From: Synergistales bacterium
Lineage (GTDB): Bacteria; Synergistota; Synergistia; Synergistales; JAFGMB01
Length of the DNA stretch: 64,000 nt
Direction: 5' to 3'
NCBI GenBank assembly: GCA_963666205.1
Contig: OY762654.1
Coordinates: forward strand, 1,536,001 to 1,600,000
The stretch's first letter is position 1. Each line of letters starts with the position of its first letter. The position numbers were made by a program, and so were the translations under genes. This document shows, in pieces, positions 3,999-21,578 of this stretch. The notes under the pieces were generated by a model. It had not been told where the DNA came from. It was given only the letters and a program-made list of their open reading frames with translations, and did not search any database.

Positions 3999-4788
3999 AC
4001 ATTTCTCCCCTTTCAAATAGTAAAAACCGGTAGAACTACCAACAACATACAAGAAAAATATCCCACCCCCCTAAGGTAAGGTATTTCTCTATCCCTTCGG
4101 ATAGAGCCCTGTTTACCAGCTTTCAATTGTATGTTCCAACAATTCTGATGAACCTGAAGCGGCTGTAGATGAAAATTGCCAATTCACAGGTCCATTCATA
4201 TTTTTGAATTATTTTAAAGGAAGAAAGGAGTAGGCCAAAATACAAAGGTCCATTTTACGATTGCTGTGATGATGTCTATAATTTCAGTATTGTATGTAAT
4301 GTATCAATATTATATAAACTACCACATTTTATTTCTTCCGTCAAAAATTGAATGCAGGAAAAATTTACAGCGGGCAAAACACCCGGAAAAATTATCCAAA
4401 GATCCCGTAAAATCTTTTATCCGGGTCAAATACTGACACTGAAGATCTGGATCGACATGCTCAGTATGATGGCTTTTTCTGGCATCGATCTTGAAAATCA
4501 GTGAAGAAATAAAGATATGAAATTATGCATAAGGGAATCAAAGAAACGGACTAAGCCATAAAAGAAAGATTATTTGTCTTCCATATCAGCTGGCGGGTGG
4601 AATATGGGATTTTCTCCAGTAAACAGGGGTGCTAATATTAAGTTCTTGAAGGATCCTGTTATCCTTGATCTCCTCTTAGCCGGTTCTTATCAGTGCTACA
4701 GGGTGATCATGGTAACCTGCGGATCCCCCAGGGCAAAAGAAGACACCTGAAAATGATGCTTCTTTCTTTTGAAAGGAGGTAGTCTTGT

Positions 4789-5031
4789 ATGAGGCTCGAA
4801 GTTATTGGAAGGATTTGCCCGGATTGCGACAGGTTTTACCAGATGACCGAAAACATTGTCAGGGATCTGCATATGAACGCCGAAATACAGAGAATAACGG
4901 ATACAAAGGATATCCTGAAGAAGTTCGGAATGATCCACGTACCAGCATTAGCTGCTGATGGAAAGATCCTTTTTGAGGGCAAGATACCCGCACCTGAAAA
5001 ACTGAAAGATAAACTTGCCCACCTTCACTAA
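4789..5031 (+). CDS. Small thioredoxin-like redox protein (MTH895/ArsE type)
   Basis: CPDC motif near the N-terminus, VPALAADGK; strong AAAGGAGG RBS. Confidence 0.85.
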   Translation: MRLEVIGRICPDCDRFYQMTENIVRDLHMNAEIQRITDTKDILKKFGMIHVPALAADGKILFEGKIPAPEKLKDKLAHLH

Positions 5032-5043
5032 TAGATCTTCCTC

Positions 5044-5106
5044 GCTATCTCTTCAGTAAACAGGCCCCCGGACCCCATCCGGGGGCCTGTTTACTGAAGA
5101 GATAGC
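5044..5106. terminator. Perfect 29-bp-stem hairpin
   Basis: GCTATCTCTTCAGTAAACAGGCCCCCGGA-CCCCA-TCCGGGGGCCTGTTTACTGAAGAGATAGC. Confidence 0.75.
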
Positions 5107-5201
5107 AAAACCTTGAATATTGATACTTAATACTTTCCTGTACAGAAATCCATCTTTCTGCTGTTCATTTAAGAAATTACCTGGAAATCGGTATTTCCTG
5201 C

Positions 5202-5258
5202 TTGACATAGATACATGACGTATCTATAATTGCCGAGCTTAGATACGTCGTGTATCTA
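5202..5258 (+). promoter_or_regulatory. Sigma70 promoter with two palindromic TetR-type operators
   Basis: TTGACA (5202-5207), 17-bp spacer, TATAAT (5225-5230). TAGATAC-N5-GTATCTA at 5208-5226 and 5240-5258. Confidence 0.9.
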
Positions 5259-5282
5259 TATTATTGTTTAGAAGGTGACTCC

Positions 5283-6572
5283 ATGACAAAGTACAGACAT
5301 CTTAAAAAACACACTCTGGCCGTTCTTTCGGTTCTGCTTCTCATCACTGTGGCATTCCTGCTTCTGGACAGGGAAAGCAAGACCGCAAACGAGATACCGG
5401 TCGAAGTTCCGAAACTGATAAAGACTGAAGTGCTCGAAAATTCAAGTACAACCATAAGTTATACCTATCCTGGAAAAGTTCAGGCTGCAAGGAAAGTCGA
5501 CCTTGCCTTCAGGGTATCGGGACAGCTTATGGAAGTTCCCATCAAGAGAGGTCAGCATGTCAAAGCGGGAGATCTCCTTGCGAAACTCGATCCCCGGGAT
5601 TTTCAGATAGCTCTCGACAGCATAACGGCAAGGCTCGGCCAGGCACAGGCCCAGATGGCGGCCATGAAGGCAGGTGCAAGGGAAGAAGACCTGAGATCTC
5701 TTGAGGCCAACGTCGCTTCTGCACAGGCGCAGATGAATGAAGCTGAAGCCCAGTATGAACGTTTCAAAAATCTGTGGAAGGAAGAAATGGTCTCCGAGTC
5801 TGAATACGAACGCTATGAAACAATGTGGCAGGTTTCAAGATCCTCTTACCAGGCTGCCATCCAGAACCTGAAAAAAGGCAAGGCAGGTTCCCGGACAGAG
5901 GACATCCAGGCCATGGAATGGTCCATCAAGGCACTTGAGGCTGAACAGCGTTCCGCCCAGGCATCCCTCGACGATACAGAACTGAGGGCTCCCTTTTCCG
6001 GTGTAGTTGCTGACCGGGCAGTTGAAAACTACGAGAATATTTCAGCGGGATACCCTGTACTCTCCCTTCAGGATATGACAGAACTCGAGATCGTGATCAA
6101 TGTTCCCGATAGGGACATAATAATTGCAGACCCTACAAGGGACTGTATCCCCCTTGTCTACTTCGATGCTTTTCCGGAAAGGTCCTTTGAAGCCTATTTC
6201 AAGGAAATAAAAACAAATGCAGACCCCTCAACCCAGACCTATGCCGTAACAGTTGCAATGGATTACCCCACAGGACTGAATGTCCTTCCCGGAATGAGCG
6301 TATCCCTCAAGGCAGATATTCCCTCTGTTGATACTTCCCATGATGGCAATTTTATTGTTCCCTCAAGCGCTATTTTTGCTGATGAAAATGGAGGCAATTA
6401 TCTCTGGGTGGTTGATCAGGAAACAAGATCTGTCGAGAAGAGAAATATCTCCGTGGGCTCCCTCGACGGTGGCAATATAGAAATATCGGGAGATATCCGA
6501 ATTGGTGAACGAATTGCCACAGCAGGAGTACATCTCCTCCGCGAAGGCCAGATCGTAAGATTTACAGACTGA
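5283..6572 (+). CDS. RND efflux periplasmic adaptor (membrane fusion protein)
   Basis: N-terminal TM, DLAFRVSGQL and LRAPFSGVV lipoyl halves, long coiled coil. Start at ATG 5283 after GAAGGTGA. Confidence 0.93.
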   Translation: MTKYRHLKKHTLAVLSVLLLITVAFLLLDRESKTANEIPVEVPKLIKTEVLENSSTTISYTYPGKVQAARKVDLAFRVSGQLMEVPIKRGQHVKAGDLLAKLDPRDFQIALDSITARLGQAQAQMAAMKAGAREEDLRSLEANVASAQAQMNEAEAQYERFKNLWKEEMVSESEYERYETMWQVSRSSYQAAIQNLKKGKAGSRTEDIQAMEWSIKALEAEQRSAQASLDDTELRAPFSGVVADRAVENYENISAGYPVLSLQDMTELEIVINVPDRDIIIADPTRDCIPLVYFDAFPERSFEAYFKEIKTNADPSTQTYAVTVAMDYPTGLNVLPGMSVSLKADIPSVDTSHDGNFIVPSSAIFADENGGNYLWVVDQETRSVEKRNISVGSLDGGNIEISGDIRIGERIATAGVHLLREGQIVRFTD

Positions 6573-6609
6573 TATAAATGTATATTTTCAGAATAAAGAG
6601 GATCTTTTA

Positions 6610-9600
6610 ATGAACATAGCCCAGTATTCCATCACAAAACGCACCGTAACCCTTTTCCTGTCCCTTCTCATCCTGATAGGGGGTACAGCAGCATACTTCC
6701 AGATGGGAAAACTGGAAGATCCGGAATACACAATAAAGACCGCAGTGGTGATAACCCGTTACCCCGGAGCAACCCCTTCGGAGGTTGAAGAGGAAGTTAC
6801 AGACGTCATTGAGACTGCTGTACAGCAGCTGGGACAGGTTGATGAAGTAAGATCCCTTTCCAGGGACGGTGTCTCTACAATATATGTGGATATAAAGGAC
6901 ACATATACGGGGAAAGACCTTCCCCAGATATGGGATGAACTTAGAAGGAAAGTAAATGGAGCCAGGTCACTACTTCCTCCCGGAGTTGGTGAACCCTTCG
7001 TTAATGACGATTATGGTGATGTTTACGGAGTCTACTTTGCCCTCTCCGGAGAAGGATACAGCTATAAGGAACTCAAAGAATATGCTGATTTTCTTAAAAG
7101 GGAACTTCTTCTCGTCAAGGATGTGGCAAGGGTTGCGATCCAGGGAGACCAGAGGGAAGTCATCTATGTTGAGATCTCAAGGGCAAAGATGGCCACAATG
7201 GGCATATCTCCCGATGCGATCTACGGGTTTCTTAACCAGCAGAATACCATCTCACAGGTGGCAAAAACCTCAGTTGGAGATGAATACCTGAGAATCGACC
7301 CTACAGGAGGTCTCAGGTCAGTTGAGGATATCGGAGACCTTGTTATAGGAGGCGGCCCTTCCGGAGCCCTTGTACATCTTCGGGATGTGGCCACTGTAAC
7401 CAGGAGTTATATGGATCCTGCCTACAGTCTTATGCGTTTCAACGGAAAAGCTGCCCTTGGAATTGGTATTTCAACCGTCAGCGGCGGAAACGTCGTTGAA
7501 ATGGGACAGGCAGTGAAGGAAAAACTTGCCATGCTCGAAGGACAGGCTCCCCTCGGTATGGCACTGGAACGGATATATCTTCAGTCCGACCGGGTCACCA
7601 TTGCCATAAACGGATTTCTTATCAACCTCGCAGAAGCCCTTGGCATAGTAATTGCCCTTCTGGTTGTATTCATGGGATGGCACAGCGGACTTCTCATAGG
7701 AGGAGTTCTCCTCCTTACAATAGGAGCCACATTCCTGACCATGCAGTTCATGGGAATTTTTCTCCAGAGAATTTCTCTGGCCTCTCTGATAATTGCCCTG
7801 GGAATGCTGGTGGACAATGCCATAGTAATAACTGAAGGTATCATGGTAAAGATCCATACAGGAATGGACCGCTTTAAGGCTTCAGGCCAGACTGCGAAGG
7901 AAACAATGTGGCCTTTGCTTGGCGCGACTATAATAGCCATTCTAGCCTTCTCTGCAATAGGCCTCTCCCCTGACAGCGTGGGAGAATACTGCCGCAGCCT
8001 TTTCCAGGTAGTGGGTATCTCTCTCCTGTGGAGCTGGATCCTTGCCCTGACCCTTACTCCCCTGCTCTGCCACATGCTGATAACAGAAAAAGACGGCGGT
8101 CCCCAGGAAGATCCTTACGGCGGAAAGTTCTTTACCCTGTATAGAAATTTTCTTAAAACAAGGCTAAACCGCAGATGGCAGACCATGATGGTCATGGCAG
8201 GATTTCTTTTTGTAGCAATATGGGGTTTCGGTTTCATAGATAAAACATTTTTCCCGGATTCGGACCTTCCCCTATTAAAGGTCGATTTCCGCAATCCCGA
8301 GAGCGTATCCATAGAAAAAACTTCAAAAGACATGGAGAAGATAGAAGATTATCTTATCCATCAGGGAGAGGTTGAATCGGTATCAACGTTTGTCGGAGGT
8401 GGAGCCCTTCGCTTCATGCTCAGCTATTCCCCTCCCGATGCTTCTTCTAATATGGGACAGATCCTCGTAAGGGTTAAAGACTTTAAAGACCTTGGAAGCA
8501 TTATAGAGAGAACCCGAAATTATCTGACGGAAAATTTCCCGGACTCACTTCCCATGACCGACCTGATGCCACTGGGCCCTCCGGGAGGAGGTGTCGAAGT
8601 ACGCTTCAGAGGCTACGACCCGGCAATTCTCCGCGAACTGAGCAACCAGGCAAAAGCAATCATGGCCGACGACCCTTATGCTATAGACGTCAGGGATACC
8701 TGGAACGAACGTGTCAAGGTTCTAAGACCCCAGATACTGGAAAAACAGGCCCGCCTTGTGGGCCTCACAAGACCAGACATAAACCGGGCCCTTCAGACAG
8801 CCTTCAGCGGATATCCCATAGGTATCTACCGTGAGGGGAACGATCTTCTCCCCATCGTTTCCAGGTACCCCGAAAAGGACCGGGGAGGGATAGAGGACCT
8901 GGACAAGGTTCAGGTATGGAACGCGAACACCAACAGGGTCATACCTTTAGGCTCGGTCATGAGCGGGCTCAAGACCGAATACGAAGACCCGGTGATCTGG
9001 AGAAAGAACAGGGTAAGAACAATAACCGCCCAATGTGATGCAAAAACCGGTACAACCAATGTCATGCTTTTCAACAGGCTTAAGCCTTTGCTGGAGAATA
9101 TAATACTCCCCCAGGGATATACCATGGAATGGGGAGGGGAACATGAAAATTCATCGGATGCTCAAGCAGGATTAAGTAAAATGCTGCCCATAAGTCTTCT
9201 CCTCATGGTGACCATACTGGTGGTGCTTTTCAATGCCCTCCGACAGCCCCTTATAATAATTCTATGCCTTCCCCTTGCCATAATAGGGGTTGCGGCAGGA
9301 CTGCTGCTTACGGGCCAGCCTTTCAGTTTCATGGCTCTGCTGGGATTTCTGAGCCTTACGGGTATGCTGATAAAGAACGCTATTGTTCTGATAGACCAGA
9401 TAGACCTCGAGATAAGGAGTGGTAAAGAAAGTTTCGATGCTGTACTGGACTCGGCAGTCAGCAGGTTGAGACCCGTAATGATGGCTTCCATGACCACTGT
9501 CCTCGGTATGATACCCCTTATCTGGGATATCCTGTTTGCACCCATGGCTGCCACAATAATGTTCGGACTGACCTTTGGAACAGTATTGACTCTGATAGTG

Positions 9601-11686: not shown

Positions 11687-11800
11687 TAAGTATTCAGAGT
11701 CATTCTGCACAAGTCCTCTATCCGTGGAGGAATTGTTCTTCTCTTTCACGGATTTTATCCTCTAAATGCACGACCTTTCATCATTTCCAACCTTTAGAAG

Positions 11801-11823
11801 GAAGTCCGGCATAGCCGGACTTC
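11801..11823 (+). terminator. Hairpin downstream of the efflux operon
   Basis: GAAGTCCGGC-ATA-GCCGGACTTC followed by a pyrimidine-rich tail. Confidence 0.6.
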
Positions 11824-11903
11824 CCTTTCCCAAGAGTTTGAAAAACAGGTCTAGCGGCAGTAACCCCTTAAGGTATTCCCTTTGACAACCTCTGTTTACC
11901 TGG

Positions 11904-11984
11904 ATATCCACAGGTTATCCACGAAATTTGTGGATAATTATGCTATTTTATGCAAAATAATCAGAAAATTGATAGAAATCCACA
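11904..11984. promoter_or_regulatory. Cluster of DnaA-box-like 9-mers
   Basis: ATATCCACA 11904, TTATCCACG 11915, perfect reverse TGTGGATAA 11929, AAATCCACA 11976; AT-rich tract follows. Confidence 0.5.
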
Positions 11985-12086
11985 TCTGATTATGATAAAT
12001 TAATCCTCAACAGATATAATATGTTTCTGAACCTGGAAATATTGTTTCTTCTATAAAAATGGCATATGTCAAAGGAGGTGCTGCAT

Positions 12087-12239
12087 ATGTGCGGCGGAAA
12101 TCACGATCATCACCATCCCCAGGTAATAAAAGTGTTCAAACCCGAACAGGACGGGGAATGCTGCTGTGAAATAAAAGCTGAAGAAGTTGAGATCAAAGAA
12201 TCCAACTGCGGATGCAATTGCACCTGCGGGAAAAAATAA
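12087..12239 (+). CDS. His/Cys-rich 50-aa peptide (metallothionein-like)
   Basis: AAAGGAGGTG RBS; MCGGNHDHHHPQVIKVFKPEQDGECCCEIKAEEVEIKESNCGCNCTCGKK*; terminator follows. Below the ORF-track size cut-off. Confidence 0.8.
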   Translation: MCGGNHDHHHPQVIKVFKPEQDGECCCEIKAEEVEIKESNCGCNCTCGKK

Positions 12240-12265
12240 CTCCTTCTTCCAAGTGAATTATCAGC

Positions 12266-12293
12266 AAAGGCCGGGCAAATGCCCGGCCTTTTT
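12266..12293. terminator. Bidirectional intrinsic terminator
   Basis: AAAGGCCGGGC-AAAT-GCCCGGCCTTTTT between convergent genes. Confidence 0.85.
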
Positions 12294-12294
12294 C

Positions 12295-12792
12295 CTATTC
12301 CGTTCGATTCCTGGTCTTTGTCCTTATCTTTCCAATCCTGCTGCTGACAGCCTGCTGGGTAATTCCGAGTTTCCGGGCTATCTCCTTCTGCAGATAGCCG
12401 AAGGCAACCATTTTCAGTATATCCTTTTCATCGCCTTCCATTAAATCAAAGATGCTGTCGGCCATCCCTGGAAGCTGCATTTCTGATCCAGGCTCCATTC
12501 CCGCATCTATCAGCTGATCCAGATCTATGGTTTCCCTCTTCCTAAGCCTTCTGGCTGCATTTCGGACCTTGGCGGGAAGCTGGCGCTTCAGGAAAAGGGG
12601 CAAAACTCTGGAAGAAGTACACCTTGGAGCAAGTTTAATAAGGGCAAGATACCCTTCCTGAACCAGATCTTCGTACTCCGCTCCCCTGCCTTCATATCTT
12701 TTAGCAAGGGCCTTGACCAGAGGAGTGAACTGTTCTGTCAATTGCTGCATTTCTTTGTCGCTGTAATTTTTTTTCTTAAGACTCGTATTCAA
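12295..12792 (-). CDS. Small sigma-70 family RNA polymerase sigma factor (regions 2 and 4)
   Basis: EYEDLVQEGYLALI (region 2); QKEIARKLGITQQAVS (region 4 HTH); TTG start with GAGGGGG RBS. Confidence 0.9.
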   Translation of the reverse strand: MNTSLKKKNYSDKEMQQLTEQFTPLVKALAKRYEGRGAEYEDLVQEGYLALIKLAPRCTSSRVLPLFLKRQLPAKVRNAARRLRKRETIDLDQLIDAGMEPGSEMQLPGMADSIFDLMEGDEKDILKMVAFGYLQKEIARKLGITQQAVSSRIGKIRTKTRNRTE

Positions 12793-12809
12793 ATTTCCCC
12801 CTCGTTTTA

Positions 12810-13151
12810 TCAGCGAATACCCAGATGAACAAAATTCCGTTTATCGTAAGTTATGACTGAATCAAAACCCACAACTCGAGCGCATTCCTGAAAGACTTTC
12901 TGTTCAGGCCAGAAAACCACTACATCTACTGCAAGACCCTTTCGATGAAGACTGTGAGGAACTCCTCCCACCTCCTGATTGTGTTTTTCACAACGATAAC
13001 CACTTGTAATGAACAATGGCTTTTTCCATATCTCCCGTAAATCTTCGAGTTTATCTACCAGGCGTGTATGGACCCTGGTACAGAGGCAGCATGGACACTG
13101 AAACTCACGCATGTTGAAATGGTCGGAAAGCCTGAAATCATTGATCCCCAG
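12810..13151 (-). CDS. Peptidase M15 family zinc peptidase (endolysin-like)
   Basis: EFQCPC, ITSGYRCEKHN, SLHxxGxAVD and FVHLG motifs. The frame is open upstream of ATG 13112 to a CTG at 13151. Confidence 0.88.
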   Translation of the reverse strand: MGINDFRLSDHFNMREFQCPCCLCTRVHTRLVDKLEDLREIWKKPLFITSGYRCEKHNQEVGGVPHSLHRKGLAVDVVVFWPEQKVFQECARVVGFDSVITYDKRNFVHLGIR

Positions 13152-13302
13152 ATTTCAGTACCCCCTGGCCCGCTATGGCGAATCGAAGTTCGGATATAGC
13201 CTGGGTCAGATCTTCCAGGCGCTTTTCCATACGCACCAGCAGATAGGCTGATACTGCTACGGCAAAGCCGCTCTGGATGGCTGATGAGACAAATTCTTCC
13301 AA
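13138..13302 (-). CDS. YvrJ-like small membrane protein (holin-like)
   Basis: MEEFVSSAIQSGFAVAVSAYLLVRMEKRLEDLTQAISEL resembles YvrJ (GFPIxVxxYLLVRxEKKL). TTG start at 13302 after GGGGGG; the ORF-track N-terminal extension is unlikely. Confidence 0.82.
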   Translation of the reverse strand: MEEFVSSAIQSGFAVAVSAYLLVRMEKRLEDLTQAISELRFAIAGQGVLKSGDQ

Positions 13303-13321
13303 CTTAATACCCCCCATATCA

Positions 13322-13407
13322 ATTTTGGATTTTAGATTAAAAACAAAAGTCAAAACCTGTTTAGATTTGCGATTTGAGATCAAATGCCAAATTCTCGCGC
13401 AGGATGG
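13322..13407. repeat. Dispersed non-coding element, copy A (related to 62487-62726)
   Basis: 13322-13353 matches 62487-62518 at 30/32; further shared 12-16-nt blocks. Confidence 0.7.
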
Positions 13408-13527
13408 GTTGTAAATGCGTCTTAAAGTCTTTGCATGATTGCCTACGGTCCGTCCCTCCACGGTTTTGTCAGTGATTTTTGACGGATTTGTGGCGTACTT
13501 CAGCCCATCACCTCTGCCTGAAAGCCG

Positions 13528-13555
13528 GATGGGCAAGGAATTAACCCTGCCCATC
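13528..13555 (-). terminator. Hairpin after the DUF2922-like gene
   Basis: GATGGGCAAGG-AATTAA-CCCTGCCCATC; no clear U-tail. Confidence 0.5.
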
Positions 13556-13576
13556 GCAGTTTTATATCAGCGCACC

Positions 13577-13780
13577 TTAGCCGATAAGCTCGGTTACGGT
13601 GTTTTCATTTATTTCGGCACTCAAAATGGAATTGATATCATCCACAAAAATGGAATTGTCGATGATGGACTGCATCGCTGCCTGCACCTCGGCAGGAGTA
13701 AGGCCATCCTTGGGGTACTTTAAGGAAATTGACATGGTGTCATTGTCACTTGTTCCAAATACCATTCTCAGAGTTTTCAA
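13577..13780 (-). CDS. DUF2922-like small protein
   Basis: MKTLRMVF...ISLKYPKDGLTPAEVQAAMQSII pattern; GGAGGTGA RBS. Confidence 0.82.
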   Translation of the reverse strand: MKTLRMVFGTSDNDTMSISLKYPKDGLTPAEVQAAMQSIIDNSIFVDDINSILSAEINENTVTELIG

Positions 13781-13822
13781 TATCTCACCTCCCCTGCATT
13801 AAAAATGTCACTGCCATGATAC

Positions 13823-14044
13823 TTAAACAGCTATGACCGCGTCGGTGTCGATCTTCTGGGTTGTATAAAGGGGAACGTTGATAACACCGGCAAGGGCTGA
13901 AGCCACTGCCTCCACTGCATCTGCCGTGGCAGCGGAATTAACTCCTCGCAGAGTCTGACTTGAAAGCTGAGGTTTGCCCCACTCGTCGGACCCGACCTGA
14001 AGCTTCAGGACAAGCTTGCTTTCCACTGGCTGAAAATTGGCCAT
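13823..14044 (-). CDS. DUF1659-like small protein
   Basis: SKLVLKLQVGxDxxGKP...VNSAATADAVEAVASALAG pattern; GGAGGTGA RBS. Confidence 0.82.
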   Translation of the reverse strand: MANFQPVESKLVLKLQVGSDEWGKPQLSSQTLRGVNSAATADAVEAVASALAGVINVPLYTTQKIDTDAVIAV

Positions 14045-14238
14045 CTTTTATCACCTCCAAAAATTTTATTTGACATCTATAAGAGTGCACCTGAAATCAT
14101 ATATATACAAATAGTAAATATAAATTTCTTTCTGTTGTCAATCAGAAATCCATAACCAGCCACTTCCGAATTGACTGGCACCCCATCTTTGGACTAATAT
14201 CAGAGAGTTTGAAATTGATTCTCAGGAGGAAACACACA

Positions 14239-14823
14239 ATGAAATGTCATCTTTGCGAAGAAAAACCCTGCCGGAAGGGAGAACCGTGTATCGAAAAGGA
14301 TAGCCGCCATCTCTATGAAGATCCTCTGGACCGAAAGCTTCTGAAGGTTGCCGCGGAAGTTGAAGCCCTTTATTACGAACAGATATGCAGGGTCGATGAG
14401 ATCATGGAGTTCTCCAGGAGAATGGGTTTTAAAAAAATAGGGATCGCTTTCTGTGTTGGACTTGCAAAGGAAGCACGTATAATAGGTGAAATATTTTCCA
14501 GAGAGTTCGAGGTTCATTCAGTATGCTGCAAGGTGGGAGGCATGGCAAAGGCCGATTTTGATATGCCTGCTCCAACATGGCTTGGCAGCACCACATGCAA
14601 CCCCGCAGAGCAGGCTAATGTTCTCAACGAAGAAGGTACAGACTTCAACGTGGTACTGGGACTATGTGTAGGCCATGATTCTCTCTTTTACAAACACTCC
14701 AAGGCACCGGTCACAACCCTTGTAACAAAGGACCGCAAACTTGGACATAACCCCGTGGCTGCCATCTACTGCCCCTACATCGTCCGCCACCTGGGAGATA
14801 AACCGAAGGAAAGAACTGAATAG
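14239..14823 (+). CDS. DUF1847-family metal-binding protein
   Basis: KKIGIAFCVGL, SVCCKVG, CNPAEQA, GLCVGHDSLF and KDRKLGHNP motifs; AGGAGGA RBS. Confidence 0.88.
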   Translation: MKCHLCEEKPCRKGEPCIEKDSRHLYEDPLDRKLLKVAAEVEALYYEQICRVDEIMEFSRRMGFKKIGIAFCVGLAKEARIIGEIFSREFEVHSVCCKVGGMAKADFDMPAPTWLGSTTCNPAEQANVLNEEGTDFNVVLGLCVGHDSLFYKHSKAPVTTLVTKDRKLGHNPVAAIYCPYIVRHLGDKPKERTE

Positions 14824-20559: not shown

Positions 20560-21411
20560 CTAATTCCTGAATTTTCTTACTGCTTTGCTTACAGTACTGT
20601 AGTGTACTCTGAAATGCCTTGCGATCTCTGCCTGGCTGTAATTACCGGAAAAATATGCCTCTGCCATGGCCTCTTTTCTATTCGAATATTTAGCCTCAAA
20701 ATCTTCCAGTTCCTTCAGCGGTTTACGTTTCTGCTCACGGGCAATATTCGAAAGATCTCCCTCTAACTGGATTTTGTTCTGCATGGCAGATACAAAGTCC
20801 TCATCTCCAAGGTAGATCTGCTGCTGGATACTTTTCATCAGGTCCGTTCCTCCTGTTATCCCATCCAGGACATAAGCCGCGTAAAGGTCCTGTTTCTTTT
20901 TCAAACCCGACCTGCAGTCAGCAACAACACTGAGGATCCACTCAGTGTTCAGCCATTCCGGAGATGGACCCAGCCCTGCTGTCGATCTGTAACTGCTCCA
21001 GAACCAGTCTTCTGGTTTCTCAACCAGTTCAGCCCTCACCGGATTCAGGACAACGTACCTGGCCAGTTCAAGGAGGTAATTTTCTTTATCTACAAGAATG
21101 GATTTGTACCGCCCCTGGAAAAGATGTCCCGTTCGGCCATGGGTGTGGTTGAAAGACTGTGTATATATTCCGTTGAGGAGTCTCATTCCCTCAGAAAGGG
21201 TTGCTTGAGGTGTTTCAATAACAAAATGGTAGTGGTTATCCATAAAACACCATGCATATGTGATCCATTTCAGCCTGTCATTGATATCACTATATATCTG
21301 AAGAAAACGATTCCGATCGTTGTCATTCAGAAATATCTGCTGTTTGTTGTCGCCCCGGGATATGACATGATAGAGAGCTCCGGGAAACTCTATTCGAAGT
21401 GGTCTGGCCAT
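20560..21411 (-). CDS. REP-associated tyrosine transposase (RAYT, HUH/Y1) with C-terminal HTH
   Basis: MARPLRIEFPGALYHVISRG, MDNHYH (HUH), GHLFQGRY, YVVLNPVRA and WSSY motifs; C-terminal SQAEIARHFRVHYSTVS. Confidence 0.93.
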   Translation of the reverse strand: MARPLRIEFPGALYHVISRGDNKQQIFLNDNDRNRFLQIYSDINDRLKWITYAWCFMDNHYHFVIETPQATLSEGMRLLNGIYTQSFNHTHGRTGHLFQGRYKSILVDKENYLLELARYVVLNPVRAELVEKPEDWFWSSYRSTAGLGPSPEWLNTEWILSVVADCRSGLKKKQDLYAAYVLDGITGGTDLMKSIQQQIYLGDEDFVSAMQNKIQLEGDLSNIAREQKRKPLKELEDFEAKYSNRKEAMAEAYFSGNYSQAEIARHFRVHYSTVSKAVRKFRN

Positions 21412-21419
21412 AATTGAGT

Positions 21420-21480
21420 ATAATAGCATACATACGGTTAAAATCAAGGTCTGACCCCATTCTTTTGGGACCTGAGTCCC
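21420..21480 (+). repeat. RAYT-associated repeat, copy 2, plus GGGAC-CTGA-GTCCC mini-palindrome
   Basis: ATAATAGCATACATACGGTTAAAATCAAGGTCTGACCCCATT directly upstream of the RAYT start; GGGACCTGAGTCCC at 21467-21480. Confidence 0.9.
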
Positions 21481-21578
21481 TTTATTTTGATACACAAGTC
21501 CCGATAAAAAGAGAAAAGATACTGTATAGTGATATTTGTTATTATTTTTATCTGAAAATTATTCAACTTTATTTGAAC

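Follow-up and report, generated by a model that had tools for sequence, protein, structure and literature searches.

A conserved DUF1659-DUF2922-YvrJ gene cluster of Synergistales, with genes for a leaderless hydrolase and a sigma factor, as a candidate holin-like stress module

We analysed a stretch of 64,000 nucleotides (nt) from a Synergistales bacterium (assembly GCA_963666205.1, contig OY762654.1, positions 1,536,001 to 1,600,000), which we call the window and to which coordinates refer unless a genome or locus is named. On its minus strand, at 12295-14044, lie five co-oriented genes encoding a DUF1659 protein, a DUF2922 protein, a YvrJ-family membrane protein, a zinc peptidase of the Peptidase_M15_3 family (M15) and a sigma-70-family factor. 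An initial annotation, made from the letters of the window, had named these five small genes and their families, and profile searches placed every product above its curated Pfam or NCBIfam cut-off. DUF1659 scored 62.3 bits against a gathering cut-off of 24.1 (PF07872, residues 4-71 of 73), DUF2922 78.6 bits against 25.5 (PF11148, residues 1-65 of 67), YvrJ 51.5 bits against 29.5 (PF12841) and the peptidase 74.1 bits against 23.2 (PF08291), while the sigma factor scored 42.6 bits against 24 with Sigma70_r2 and 57.1 bits against 42.9 with TIGR02937. A profile-based survey of copy number found each of the five families once in the 2.95-Mb genome. The annotation had also described very strong ribosome-binding sites on the two ~70-residue genes, a similar strand-strand-helix-strand layout of their products, a hairpin after this pair, a peptidase lacking a signal peptide and a minimal sigma factor, and the results given below agree with it on all of these points. 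The features of the cluster are as follows.

14074..14115, minus strand: promoter-like bipartite motif, position weight matrix (PWM) score 47.3
13823..14044, minus strand: DUF1659 protein, 73 residues (PF07872, E-value 4e-17)
13577..13780, minus strand: DUF2922 protein, 67 residues, TTG start (PF11148, E 3.2e-22)
13528..13555, minus strand: stem-loop found by folding, 11-bp stem and 6-nt loop
13138..13317, minus strand: YvrJ-family membrane protein, 59 residues from ATG or 54 residues from TTG (PF12841, E 7.1e-14)
12810..13151 (CTG start) or 12810..13112 (ATG start), minus strand: leaderless LAS/M15 zinc peptidase (PF08291, E 1.1e-20)
12295..12792, minus strand: minimal sigma-70-family factor, 165 residues, TTG start (Sigma70_r2, E 5.2e-11)
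12266..12291, no strand assigned: GC-rich hairpin of 11 pairs with T-runs flanking it on both strands, a bidirectional terminator closing the cluster

Profiles made from the first 20 of 70 loci were then run against all 70, and removal of duplicates left 60 unique loci with YvrJ. Genes for DUF1659 and then DUF2922 preceded yvrJ in all 49 Synergistota-side unique loci that had at least 700 nt of upstream sequence, and DUF1659-DUF2922-hairpin-YvrJ is the conserved core of the cassette. Downstream of this triad, the M15 and sigma genes were both present in 30 of the 44 Synergistota-side loci with at least 1100 nt available, M15 only in 3, sigma only in 1 and neither in 10, and the neighbourhood survey thereby bears out the co-conservation on which the initial annotation depended. 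The cassette is conserved across the 10 sampled families of the order and in other phyla, and 32 of 41 genomes from this order carried DUF2922, mostly as a single copy. Seven of the eight loci from other phyla (titled Sporomusa, Syntrophomonas, Pelotomaculum, Clostridiales and others) contained the triad, with the sigma gene upstream of DUF1659 in four of these seven. DUF2922 was found in 84 of 151 sampled genomes of a Clostridia-side phylum; of the 30 best-scoring loci examined there, picked by score and not a random sample, all 30 had an adjacent DUF1659 gene, 24 had YvrJ, 6 a sigma gene and 1 M15. In the control genomes, both DUF families were found in Thermotoga maritima and only YvrJ in Bacillus subtilis. 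Codon changes relative to a same-genus genome were 13 synonymous and 1 non-synonymous for DUF1659, 7 and 1 for DUF2922, 32 and 7 for M15, and 24 and 12 for the sigma factor (93% identical), which points to strong purifying selection on the cassette.

The most informative variation concerned the gene that follows yvrJ. M15 occupied this place in 33 of the 44 Synergistota-side loci, and a GH108 muramidase with a PG_binding_3 domain directly followed YvrJ in three others (L014, L019, L052) or stood one gene further downstream (L039, L040, L044). At least 5 of the 10 Synergistota loci with neither M15 nor sigma have GH108, and a sixth is split by a prophage. An Amidase_2 enzyme, usually with a SPOR domain, was identified with Pfam in 7 of 36 downstream open reading frames (ORFs; L058, L070, L082, L086, L087, L090, L104) and with phmmer in L102 and L103; a polysaccharide deacetylase followed YvrJ in L085, and in L093 the M15 gene lay between DUF2922 and YvrJ. 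Overall, a wall enzyme stood beside YvrJ in 9 of the 24 Clostridia-side loci with YvrJ. One representative of each main family was compared with phage protein families, and all three matched endolysin PHROGs (window M15, E 3e-32; GH108 of L014, 5.9e-45; Amidase_2 of L086, 8.1e-29). The catalytic domains begin at residues 2-8 or 18 (Pfam; L040 not included), and none of the 13 hydrolases checked, L040 included, had a hydrophobic N-terminal segment. In many loci the hydrolase starts within a few nt of the YvrJ stop, a holin-like placement of YvrJ just upstream of a leaderless endolysin-type gene.

Because the gene after YvrJ is replaced by unrelated endolysin-type hydrolases in other lineages, YvrJ appears to be functionally coupled to a leaderless peptidoglycan hydrolase. 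Since related genomes are not independent samples, we counted the swaps as at least three or four independent recruitments and did not treat them as a statistic. Repeated recruitment of unrelated, signal-less hydrolases behind the same small membrane protein is the pattern of holin-endolysin pairs. Sixteen further ORFs after YvrJ, of unassigned family, matched neither PHROG nor Pfam. In L040 (4156-5655), L044 (4286-5944), L038 (4481-5788) and L039 (2217-3008), a protein of 260-550 residues with one hydrophobic N-terminal stretch is encoded immediately downstream of YvrJ; these proteins had no Pfam or PHROG match, and in L039, L040 and L044 the GH108 muramidase comes after them.

Analysis of the YvrJ sequence showed one hydrophobic segment (~F9-V28) followed by a YLL(V/I)RME motif, RMEKR and an amphipathic C-terminal tail, with soluble parts of ~10 and ~30 residues. 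Q15, F18, V22, Y25, L26, L27, R29, M30 and E31 are invariant, and YLLVRM is invariant in 15 YvrJ sequences. A length of 54 residues, starting from TTG 13302, is more likely than 59 residues from ATG 13317, because this TTG aligns with the start methionine of relatives; a 138-residue ORF at 13138-13554 was rejected as an artefact. A search for longer proteins that might represent fused YvrJ-hydrolase forms gave five candidates, all of them over-extended ORF calls without an extra domain, which is weak evidence against fusions. YvrJ also fell into one viral cluster of the ESM Atlas at 0.91, which we regard as a lead only.

The window's M15 protein is best described as a leaderless LAS-family zinc peptidase and predicted peptidoglycan hydrolase. 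It matched PHROG 894 (endolysin), and its alignment profile matched PDB 1LBU, the zinc D-Ala-D-Ala carboxypeptidase of Streptomyces, at 5.9e-12. In an alignment of 27 M15 sequences, H67, D74 and H107 of the SxHxxGxAxD...H pattern are invariant, as are C17, C19 and C52, and S65-x-H67-x2-G70-x-A72-x-D74 together with H107 are invariant or nearly so, which fits the LAS zinc ligands H-x6-D ... H. Three residues ahead of H107 the aligned sequences have N, G or H, and hence we assigned no catalytic base. No hydrophobic segment was seen at the N-terminus of the protein. Its start codon is less straightforward. The overlap with yvrJ given in the initial annotation does not hold for the ATG at 13112, which leaves a 25-nt gap after yvrJ; it exists only if a non-canonical codon is used. 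The conserved N-terminus INDxRLSxHF is encoded upstream of ATG 13112 in the same open frame, no ATG, GTG or TTG precedes it in the window (13112-13154), and the new ATG falls at a normally conserved Leu. Both the window and a sister genome carry CTG (13151 in the window) where relatives carry TTG, ATG or GTG, 2-3 codons before the conserved ND. The sequence thus suggests either a rare-codon start that overlaps yvrJ or a protein that lacks 13 conserved residues.

Both DUF genes have a GGAGGTGA ribosome-binding site before the start codon, and the DUF2922 protein is acidic. AlphaFold2 modelled DUF1659 (predicted local distance difference test, pLDDT, 62.6) and DUF2922 (pLDDT 82.1) alike as strand-strand-helix-strand. 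Because both models have this layout, the two proteins are probably old paralogues; alignment of their profiles with hhalign gave a probability of 52% and an E-value of 1.4e-4, with the two in register. Word-based homologue searches returned 3 relatives of DUF1659 and 11 of DUF2922, all close, and alignments were therefore built from the loci. The two proteins had been suggested to form a heteromer, and co-folding gave an interface score (ipSAE, interaction prediction score from aligned errors) of 0.51 against 0.07 for the best control, with at least 96% of contacts in agreement over three runs and a partner pLDDT of at least 75. Of the 157 solved complexes in the benchmark for this score 116 passed the mark, as did 2 of its 215 mismatched pairs, but at or below 0.60 there were only 18 of the 157 solved complexes along with both passing mismatches, and we grade the co-fold as weak support for a heteromer.

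Comparison with known structures was less productive. Sequence searches of the PDB with DUF1659 and DUF2922 gave 0 matches at E <= 10. Foldseek with the DUF2922 model, a check proposed with the initial annotation, gave as its best match the phage p56 inhibitor of uracil-DNA glycosylase (E 0.03, template modelling score 0.39-0.55) and no convincing relative, and a wide VIA-align search with the same model reached at best Z 4.8, with 0 chains at Z >= 5; this outcome supports neither a new fold nor a relationship.

The pair is followed by an 11-bp stem-loop (13528-13555), ~20 nt past the DUF2922 stop and with no clear U-run after it. This hairpin is conserved in its position but not in its sequence: a 45-nt window at <= -12 kcal/mol was present in 47 of the 55 unique DUF2922-yvrJ spacers, and 41 of the 44 spacers of 45-300 nt folded better than all 10 of their shuffles. 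The stem-loop is probably an attenuator or a stabiliser of the 3' end between the highly expressed pair and the downstream genes. The spacer of the window is ~260 nt long, compared with a median of 72 nt in relatives; the region 13318-13576 had no repeat elsewhere in the genome, and its fold z-score of -1.72 was not significant. In the sister genome the spacer measures 137 nt and contains a second small hairpin, GATGGGCTGAAGCCCATC, which in the window is split by the ~115-130 extra nt (within 13380-13500, an insert with no other copy in the genome). In the metatranscriptome data of two studies, contigs span the DUF pair (13584-14049 and 13582-13915) as well as the junctions of yvrJ with M15 (13045-13315) and of M15 with the sigma gene (12554-12909), which is evidence of presence in RNA libraries only; 13316-13581 is covered by no such contig, a gap that carries no evidential weight.

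The sigma factor contains regions 2 and 4 only within its 165 residues, region 3 being absent, and fits the two-domain (group 4-like) class; models of region 4 scored just under their cut-off (r4_2, 22.4 against 25.7). A bipartite motif, ACTATTTGTATA-N16-GCACTCTTATAGATG, lies at 14074-14115, ~30 nt upstream of the DUF1659 start codon. With a PWM built from 23 unique sites, the score at the cassette was 47.3 over the 2.95-Mb genome, followed by 22.4 and then 11.6. We considered the site scoring 22.4 as a second promoter and treated it as spurious, as it overlaps a terminator-like hairpin after a GGDEF-type gene. Each related locus having the motif carried one site, on the coding strand and upstream of DUF1659, and the PWM windows begin 68-109 nt before the start of the DUF1659 profile. 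Across unique loci, sigma gene and motif occurred together in 18, the sigma gene without the motif in 15, the motif without the sigma gene in 2 and neither in 13. One of the two loci with motif and no sigma gene belongs to the same-genus genome, where an intact sigma gene lies 40 kb away; of the 15 with sigma gene and no motif, 4 are from other phyla and the rest are Synergistota-side, several with a visibly degenerate motif. The motif is a candidate target of the cassette's own sigma factor. Taken with the conserved hairpin, these findings suggest a single operon in which the pair is produced at a high level and read-through into the yvrJ, hydrolase and sigma genes is attenuated.

Some triads have no adjacent sigma gene. 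Five genomes of the two families in question (f5 and f4) were searched for a sigma match; four had none and one (G034) had a weak match at E 6.4e-5. In the sigma-less triads of one Synergistota family (f5; L009/L040, L016/L038, L039 and L044), DUF1659 is preceded by a sigma-70-like promoter, TTGAAA-N17-TAnCAT in L009, L016, L039 and L044, overlapped by an AGAAC-N5-GTTCT palindrome. We rejected the palindrome as an SOS box or global operator, since its genome counts equal those of a reversed-pattern control (5 versus 6 in G026, 2 versus 1 in G034). Since it is not enriched across the genome, it probably serves a local regulator as its operator. In G026 the triad is flanked by two of the five copies (G026:C1:2083762 and 2086326), the second being 2.6 kb downstream.

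Parts of this arrangement have counterparts in characterised systems. In Staphylococcus aureus, the available text of a preprint reports that SigS, a sigma factor of the extracytoplasmic function group, induces the bicistronic sroAB ~1000-fold and does so directly in vitro (10.1101/2022.10.19.512975). SroA belongs to the DUF1659 family and SroB to DUF2922, and the same text describes their interaction in a two-hybrid assay and a feedback on sigS mRNA (10.1101/2022.10.19.512975). As in the window, the two genes are adjacent, in the same order and equipped with canonical ribosome-binding sites, as far as the available texts describe them (10.1101/2022.10.19.512975; PMC13192611). Both systems involve a small alternative sigma factor, with transcription demonstrated in vitro in S. 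aureus and suggested by the motif here. In the window, however, the pair is clustered with yvrJ, hydrolase and sigma genes, whereas S. aureus sigS lies elsewhere and the available texts mention no YvrJ or hydrolase partner.

In Bacillus subtilis, yvrJ is presumably without an adjacent hydrolase gene, a profile search of the control genome gave neither DUF1659 nor DUF2922, and the sigma factor concerned is split into two polypeptides, unlike the single protein with regions 2 and 4 found here. To our knowledge, the OxdC protein of this bacterium has no signal peptide. The two-subunit SigO-RsoA is reported, in the text available, to transcribe yvrJ, oxdC-yvrL and its own operon (PMC8103513), and OxdC is described as accumulating in the cell wall (PMC3542257). 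The SigO-RsoA regulon (yvrI-yvrHa, yvrJ, oxdC-yvrL) resembles the cassette, on these descriptions, in placing a YvrJ gene under a dedicated, atypical sigma factor encoded next to it and in having a main product that is located in the wall.

A third comparison is with Serratia marcescens, where the leaderless LAS peptidase ChiX is described as needing the holin ChiW to reach the periplasm and both proteins as required for the secretion of chitinase (PMC5778951; PMC4259817). The ChiW/ChiX pair is likewise chromosomal and not part of a prophage, and combines a small membrane protein with a leaderless LAS zinc peptidase in a diderm host. The same sources place ChiW in a phage holin lineage, with three transmembrane domains predicted, whereas YvrJ has one and matches no holin family; the cargo in Serratia consists of chitinases. 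Release loci that combine a sigma factor with a holin are also known, TcdR/TcdE for a toxin and UviA/UviB for a bacteriocin. They place a small, dedicated sigma-70-family factor beside a holin-like gene and control a release function, as the cassette may do, but here we found no toxin or bacteriocin gene and the partner hydrolase is intact, not a remnant. Such loci are touched on in the available text of PMC8878733.

We read the cassette as a host-owned, sigma-gated stress module resembling phage lysis, in which YvrJ would be holin-like for an interchangeable hydrolase and the DUF pair would act as regulator or timer, and we give this reading about an even chance (a probability near 0.5). Observed directly are the gene families, the order and conservation of the genes, the exchange of one hydrolase for another, the single occurrence of the motif in the genome and the purifying selection; the biochemical steps that follow are inferred. 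The sigma factor would recognise one dedicated promoter before DUF1659, and DUF1659 and DUF2922 would be translated abundantly from their strong ribosome-binding sites. These distant paralogues would form a soluble, acidic heterodimer, as two-hybrid data show for the S. aureus homologues. The stem-loop would limit read-through into the yvrJ, peptidase and sigma genes, and the limited read-through into the sigma gene would thereby close a positive feedback loop. YvrJ (~54 residues, single-pass) would act in a holin-like manner, as comparative genomics suggests, and give the leaderless M15 enzyme access to the cell wall. This could end in controlled remodelling of the wall, in the release of protein from the cytoplasm or in autolysis under stress. 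For the DUF pair, a part as timer or regulator, either of this process or of the sigma factor as reported for SroA and SroB, is more likely than one as cargo.

Several observations weigh against this proposal. Like VanX, an LAS enzyme without a leader could have its site of action in the cytoplasm, and the window's M15 may be poorly translated or truncated in this genome because no canonical start precedes its conserved N-terminus. The initial annotation's assignment of YvrJ as a holin gains from the coupling to leaderless hydrolases of swapped families, but YvrJ matched no known holin family or phage homologue: among PHROG families there were 0 matches at E <= 0.01, its Pfam match was YvrJ only, 0 of 31 pattern matches in IMG/VR were confirmed, and one YvrJ (a Clostridia-side copy) gave no tblastn match in 50,697 phage records. 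The hydrophobic segment of YvrJ is, in addition, borderline for a membrane span (Kyte-Doolittle 19-residue maximum 1.61). The parts of the cassette are separable, B. subtilis having yvrJ without the DUF pair and Clostridia-side loci occurring without a wall enzyme; no recognisable wall enzyme was present in the ~1.2 kb available downstream in 15 of the 24 Clostridia-side YvrJ loci. Self-regulation by the sigma factor is plausible, given a single motif before DUF1659 that mostly accompanies a sigma gene, but 15 sigma-carrying loci scored under the motif threshold, and related genomes are non-independent samples here too. The association between motif and sigma gene is suggestive, not proof, because the upstream regions that served to train the matrix, the window's among them, are the ones scored here. 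A rough FastTree of the sigma factors (146 columns) did not join those of the Synergistota and Bacillota sides in one clade; it also put weak matches from the loci's own genomes inside the clade, and we did not use it. Finally, SroA and SroB of S. aureus are described, in the texts available, as regulators of mRNA stability and metabolism and not of lysis (10.1101/2022.10.19.512975; PMC13192611).

The last point leads to a purely regulatory stress circuit, in which the DUF pair, like SroA and SroB, would modulate the level or activity of the sigma factor, YvrJ would be a membrane-anchored sensor or anti-sigma-like partner, and the peptidase would be a mere member of the regulon, acting on the wall or on cytoplasmic precursors, with no export or lysis through YvrJ. 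It is common for sigma factors this small to have a small membrane protein with a single span as their regulator. Two gene orders link the triad to a sigma gene, which lies downstream in Synergistota and upstream in Sporomusa and on the Clostridia side, and the promoter motif is unique in the genome, both of which suit such a circuit. The soluble parts of YvrJ are nevertheless much shorter than known anti-sigma domains, and the circuit leaves three unrelated leaderless endolysin-type families after YvrJ unexplained. It also does not account for the f5 and f4 genomes, in which the triad persists even though four of the five are without a sigma match and the fifth has the weak one noted above; because of this persistence YvrJ and the pair would have a role beyond control of the sigma factor. 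In its favour are the reports, in the available texts, that SroA stabilises sigS mRNA and SroB counteracts it (10.1101/2022.10.19.512975) and that overexpression of SroA alters ~200 transcripts (PMC13192611). We consider the purely regulatory circuit rather unlikely. More improbable still is the model of the initial annotation, in which the DUF1659 and DUF2922 proteins, as abundant cargo or structural subunits, would pass out of the cell via YvrJ and the peptidase. Strong ribosome-binding sites, the absence of a signal peptide from either DUF protein, the constant position of the pair upstream of the YvrJ-hydrolase pair, and a hairpin that would give high cargo and low holin expression all speak for such a model, and OxdC, co-regulated with yvrJ, offers an analogy as a protein that accumulates in the B. 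subtilis wall according to the text available (PMC3542257; PMC8103513). Yet the S. aureus homologues are described in the available preprint texts as acting on intracellular RNA levels, the fold searches matched no secreted or structural family (Foldseek E 0.03; VIA Z 4.8), and the DUF proteins are small and acidic, unlike bacteriocins.

We also asked if the cassette could be the lysis module of a decaying prophage, devoid of host function. The hydrolases do belong to endolysin PHROGs, the window's M15 is without a canonical start codon, and DUF1659 (E 0.0063) and DUF2922 (E 4.1e-5) have weak matches to PHROGs of unknown function. In the same-genus genome, moreover, yvrJ is the integration site of a ~39-kb siphovirus-like prophage, which lies at the YLLVRM codons (L107, L108; G001:C4:19300-58800; compare 13227-13243 of the window) with these codons imperfectly repeated at both junctions. 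The prophage encodes terminase, portal, tape-measure and tail-fibre proteins, a CI-like repressor, Ant and a phrog_894 endolysin of its own, with a 525-residue serine integrase at the yvrJ-proximal end. Its insertion truncates YvrJ and places the M15 and sigma genes 40 kb from the promoter; the window thus carries the uninterrupted yvrJ site. Gene-disrupting lysogeny is known for sigK and comK, and by analogy the prophage in yvrJ may represent such a reversible disruption. The window itself has no capsid, terminase or integrase gene within ~12 kb on either side of the cassette, in agreement with the initial annotation, and no other phage gene in that interval. The cassette is present in a single copy, conserved across the 10 sampled families and other phyla and under strong purifying selection, and the DUF1659, DUF2922 and YvrJ queries that we tried had no homologue in the 50,697 phage records or IMG/VR. 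The reading as a prophage remnant is thus largely refuted, and we regard it as very improbable.

DUF1659, DUF2922 and YvrJ are common families of unknown function, and the cassette unites in one operon parts that are known from separate findings (SigS-sroAB and SigO-yvrJ). A literature search combining the three family names gave no paper joining YvrJ with DUF1659 or DUF2922. To these it adds the repeated association of YvrJ with endolysin-type hydrolases that have no leader and come from unrelated families, which yields a testable function, the holin-like delivery of a hydrolase controlled by a dedicated sigma factor together with the two small proteins. If correct, this would bring a non-phage family into holin-mediated protein translocation as known so far. 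More tentatively, and as a proposal that we find doubtful but worth stating, YvrJ could be a cellular, non-phage holin-like family that forms, with the DUF pair as timer or cargo and a swappable hydrolase, a widespread sigma-gated export or autolysis system of Clostridia, Synergistota and their relatives. If true, such a system would also account for the arrival of leaderless OxdC in the wall of B. subtilis and for the importance of SigS-SroAB in the survival of S. aureus under stress.

The surroundings of the cassette comprise genes for a TRAP transporter, an RND efflux pump, a TetR regulator, a DUF1847 protein, an MFS transporter, a dienelactone hydrolase and an IS200-like transposase. The transposase, of the Y1 type and with an HTH_28 domain, is encoded at 20560-21495 on the minus strand, ~6.5 kb from the cassette. 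The DUF1847 gene (14209-14823, plus strand, E 5e-56) is divergent from the cassette promoter and adjoins the cassette in the sister genome too, where blastn identity extends to position 14762. A search of 11800-14600 with Rfam gave nothing above the gathering threshold, the best match being a terminator that resembles Leu_leader at 29.2 bits against 50, and PADLOC returned no defence-system match for four of the cassette proteins and only weak sigma/HTH matches for the fifth. The terminator at 12266-12291 is common to the sigma gene and a convergent ORF at 12066-12239 on the plus strand, which encodes a 57-residue Cys/His-rich protein (HDHHH, CCC, CGCNCTC) behind a GGAGGTG ribosome-binding site. 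This protein had no Pfam or NCBIfam match and could be a metal-binding peptide. In a different setting, the triad and GH108 gene of L052, an Acetomicrobium-labelled contig, are flanked by HTH_3, HTH_36, DUF6475, DUF433, NYN and AbiEi-like genes (220-2205 and 4065-7021), which looks like a mobile or defence-island context, unlike that of the window.

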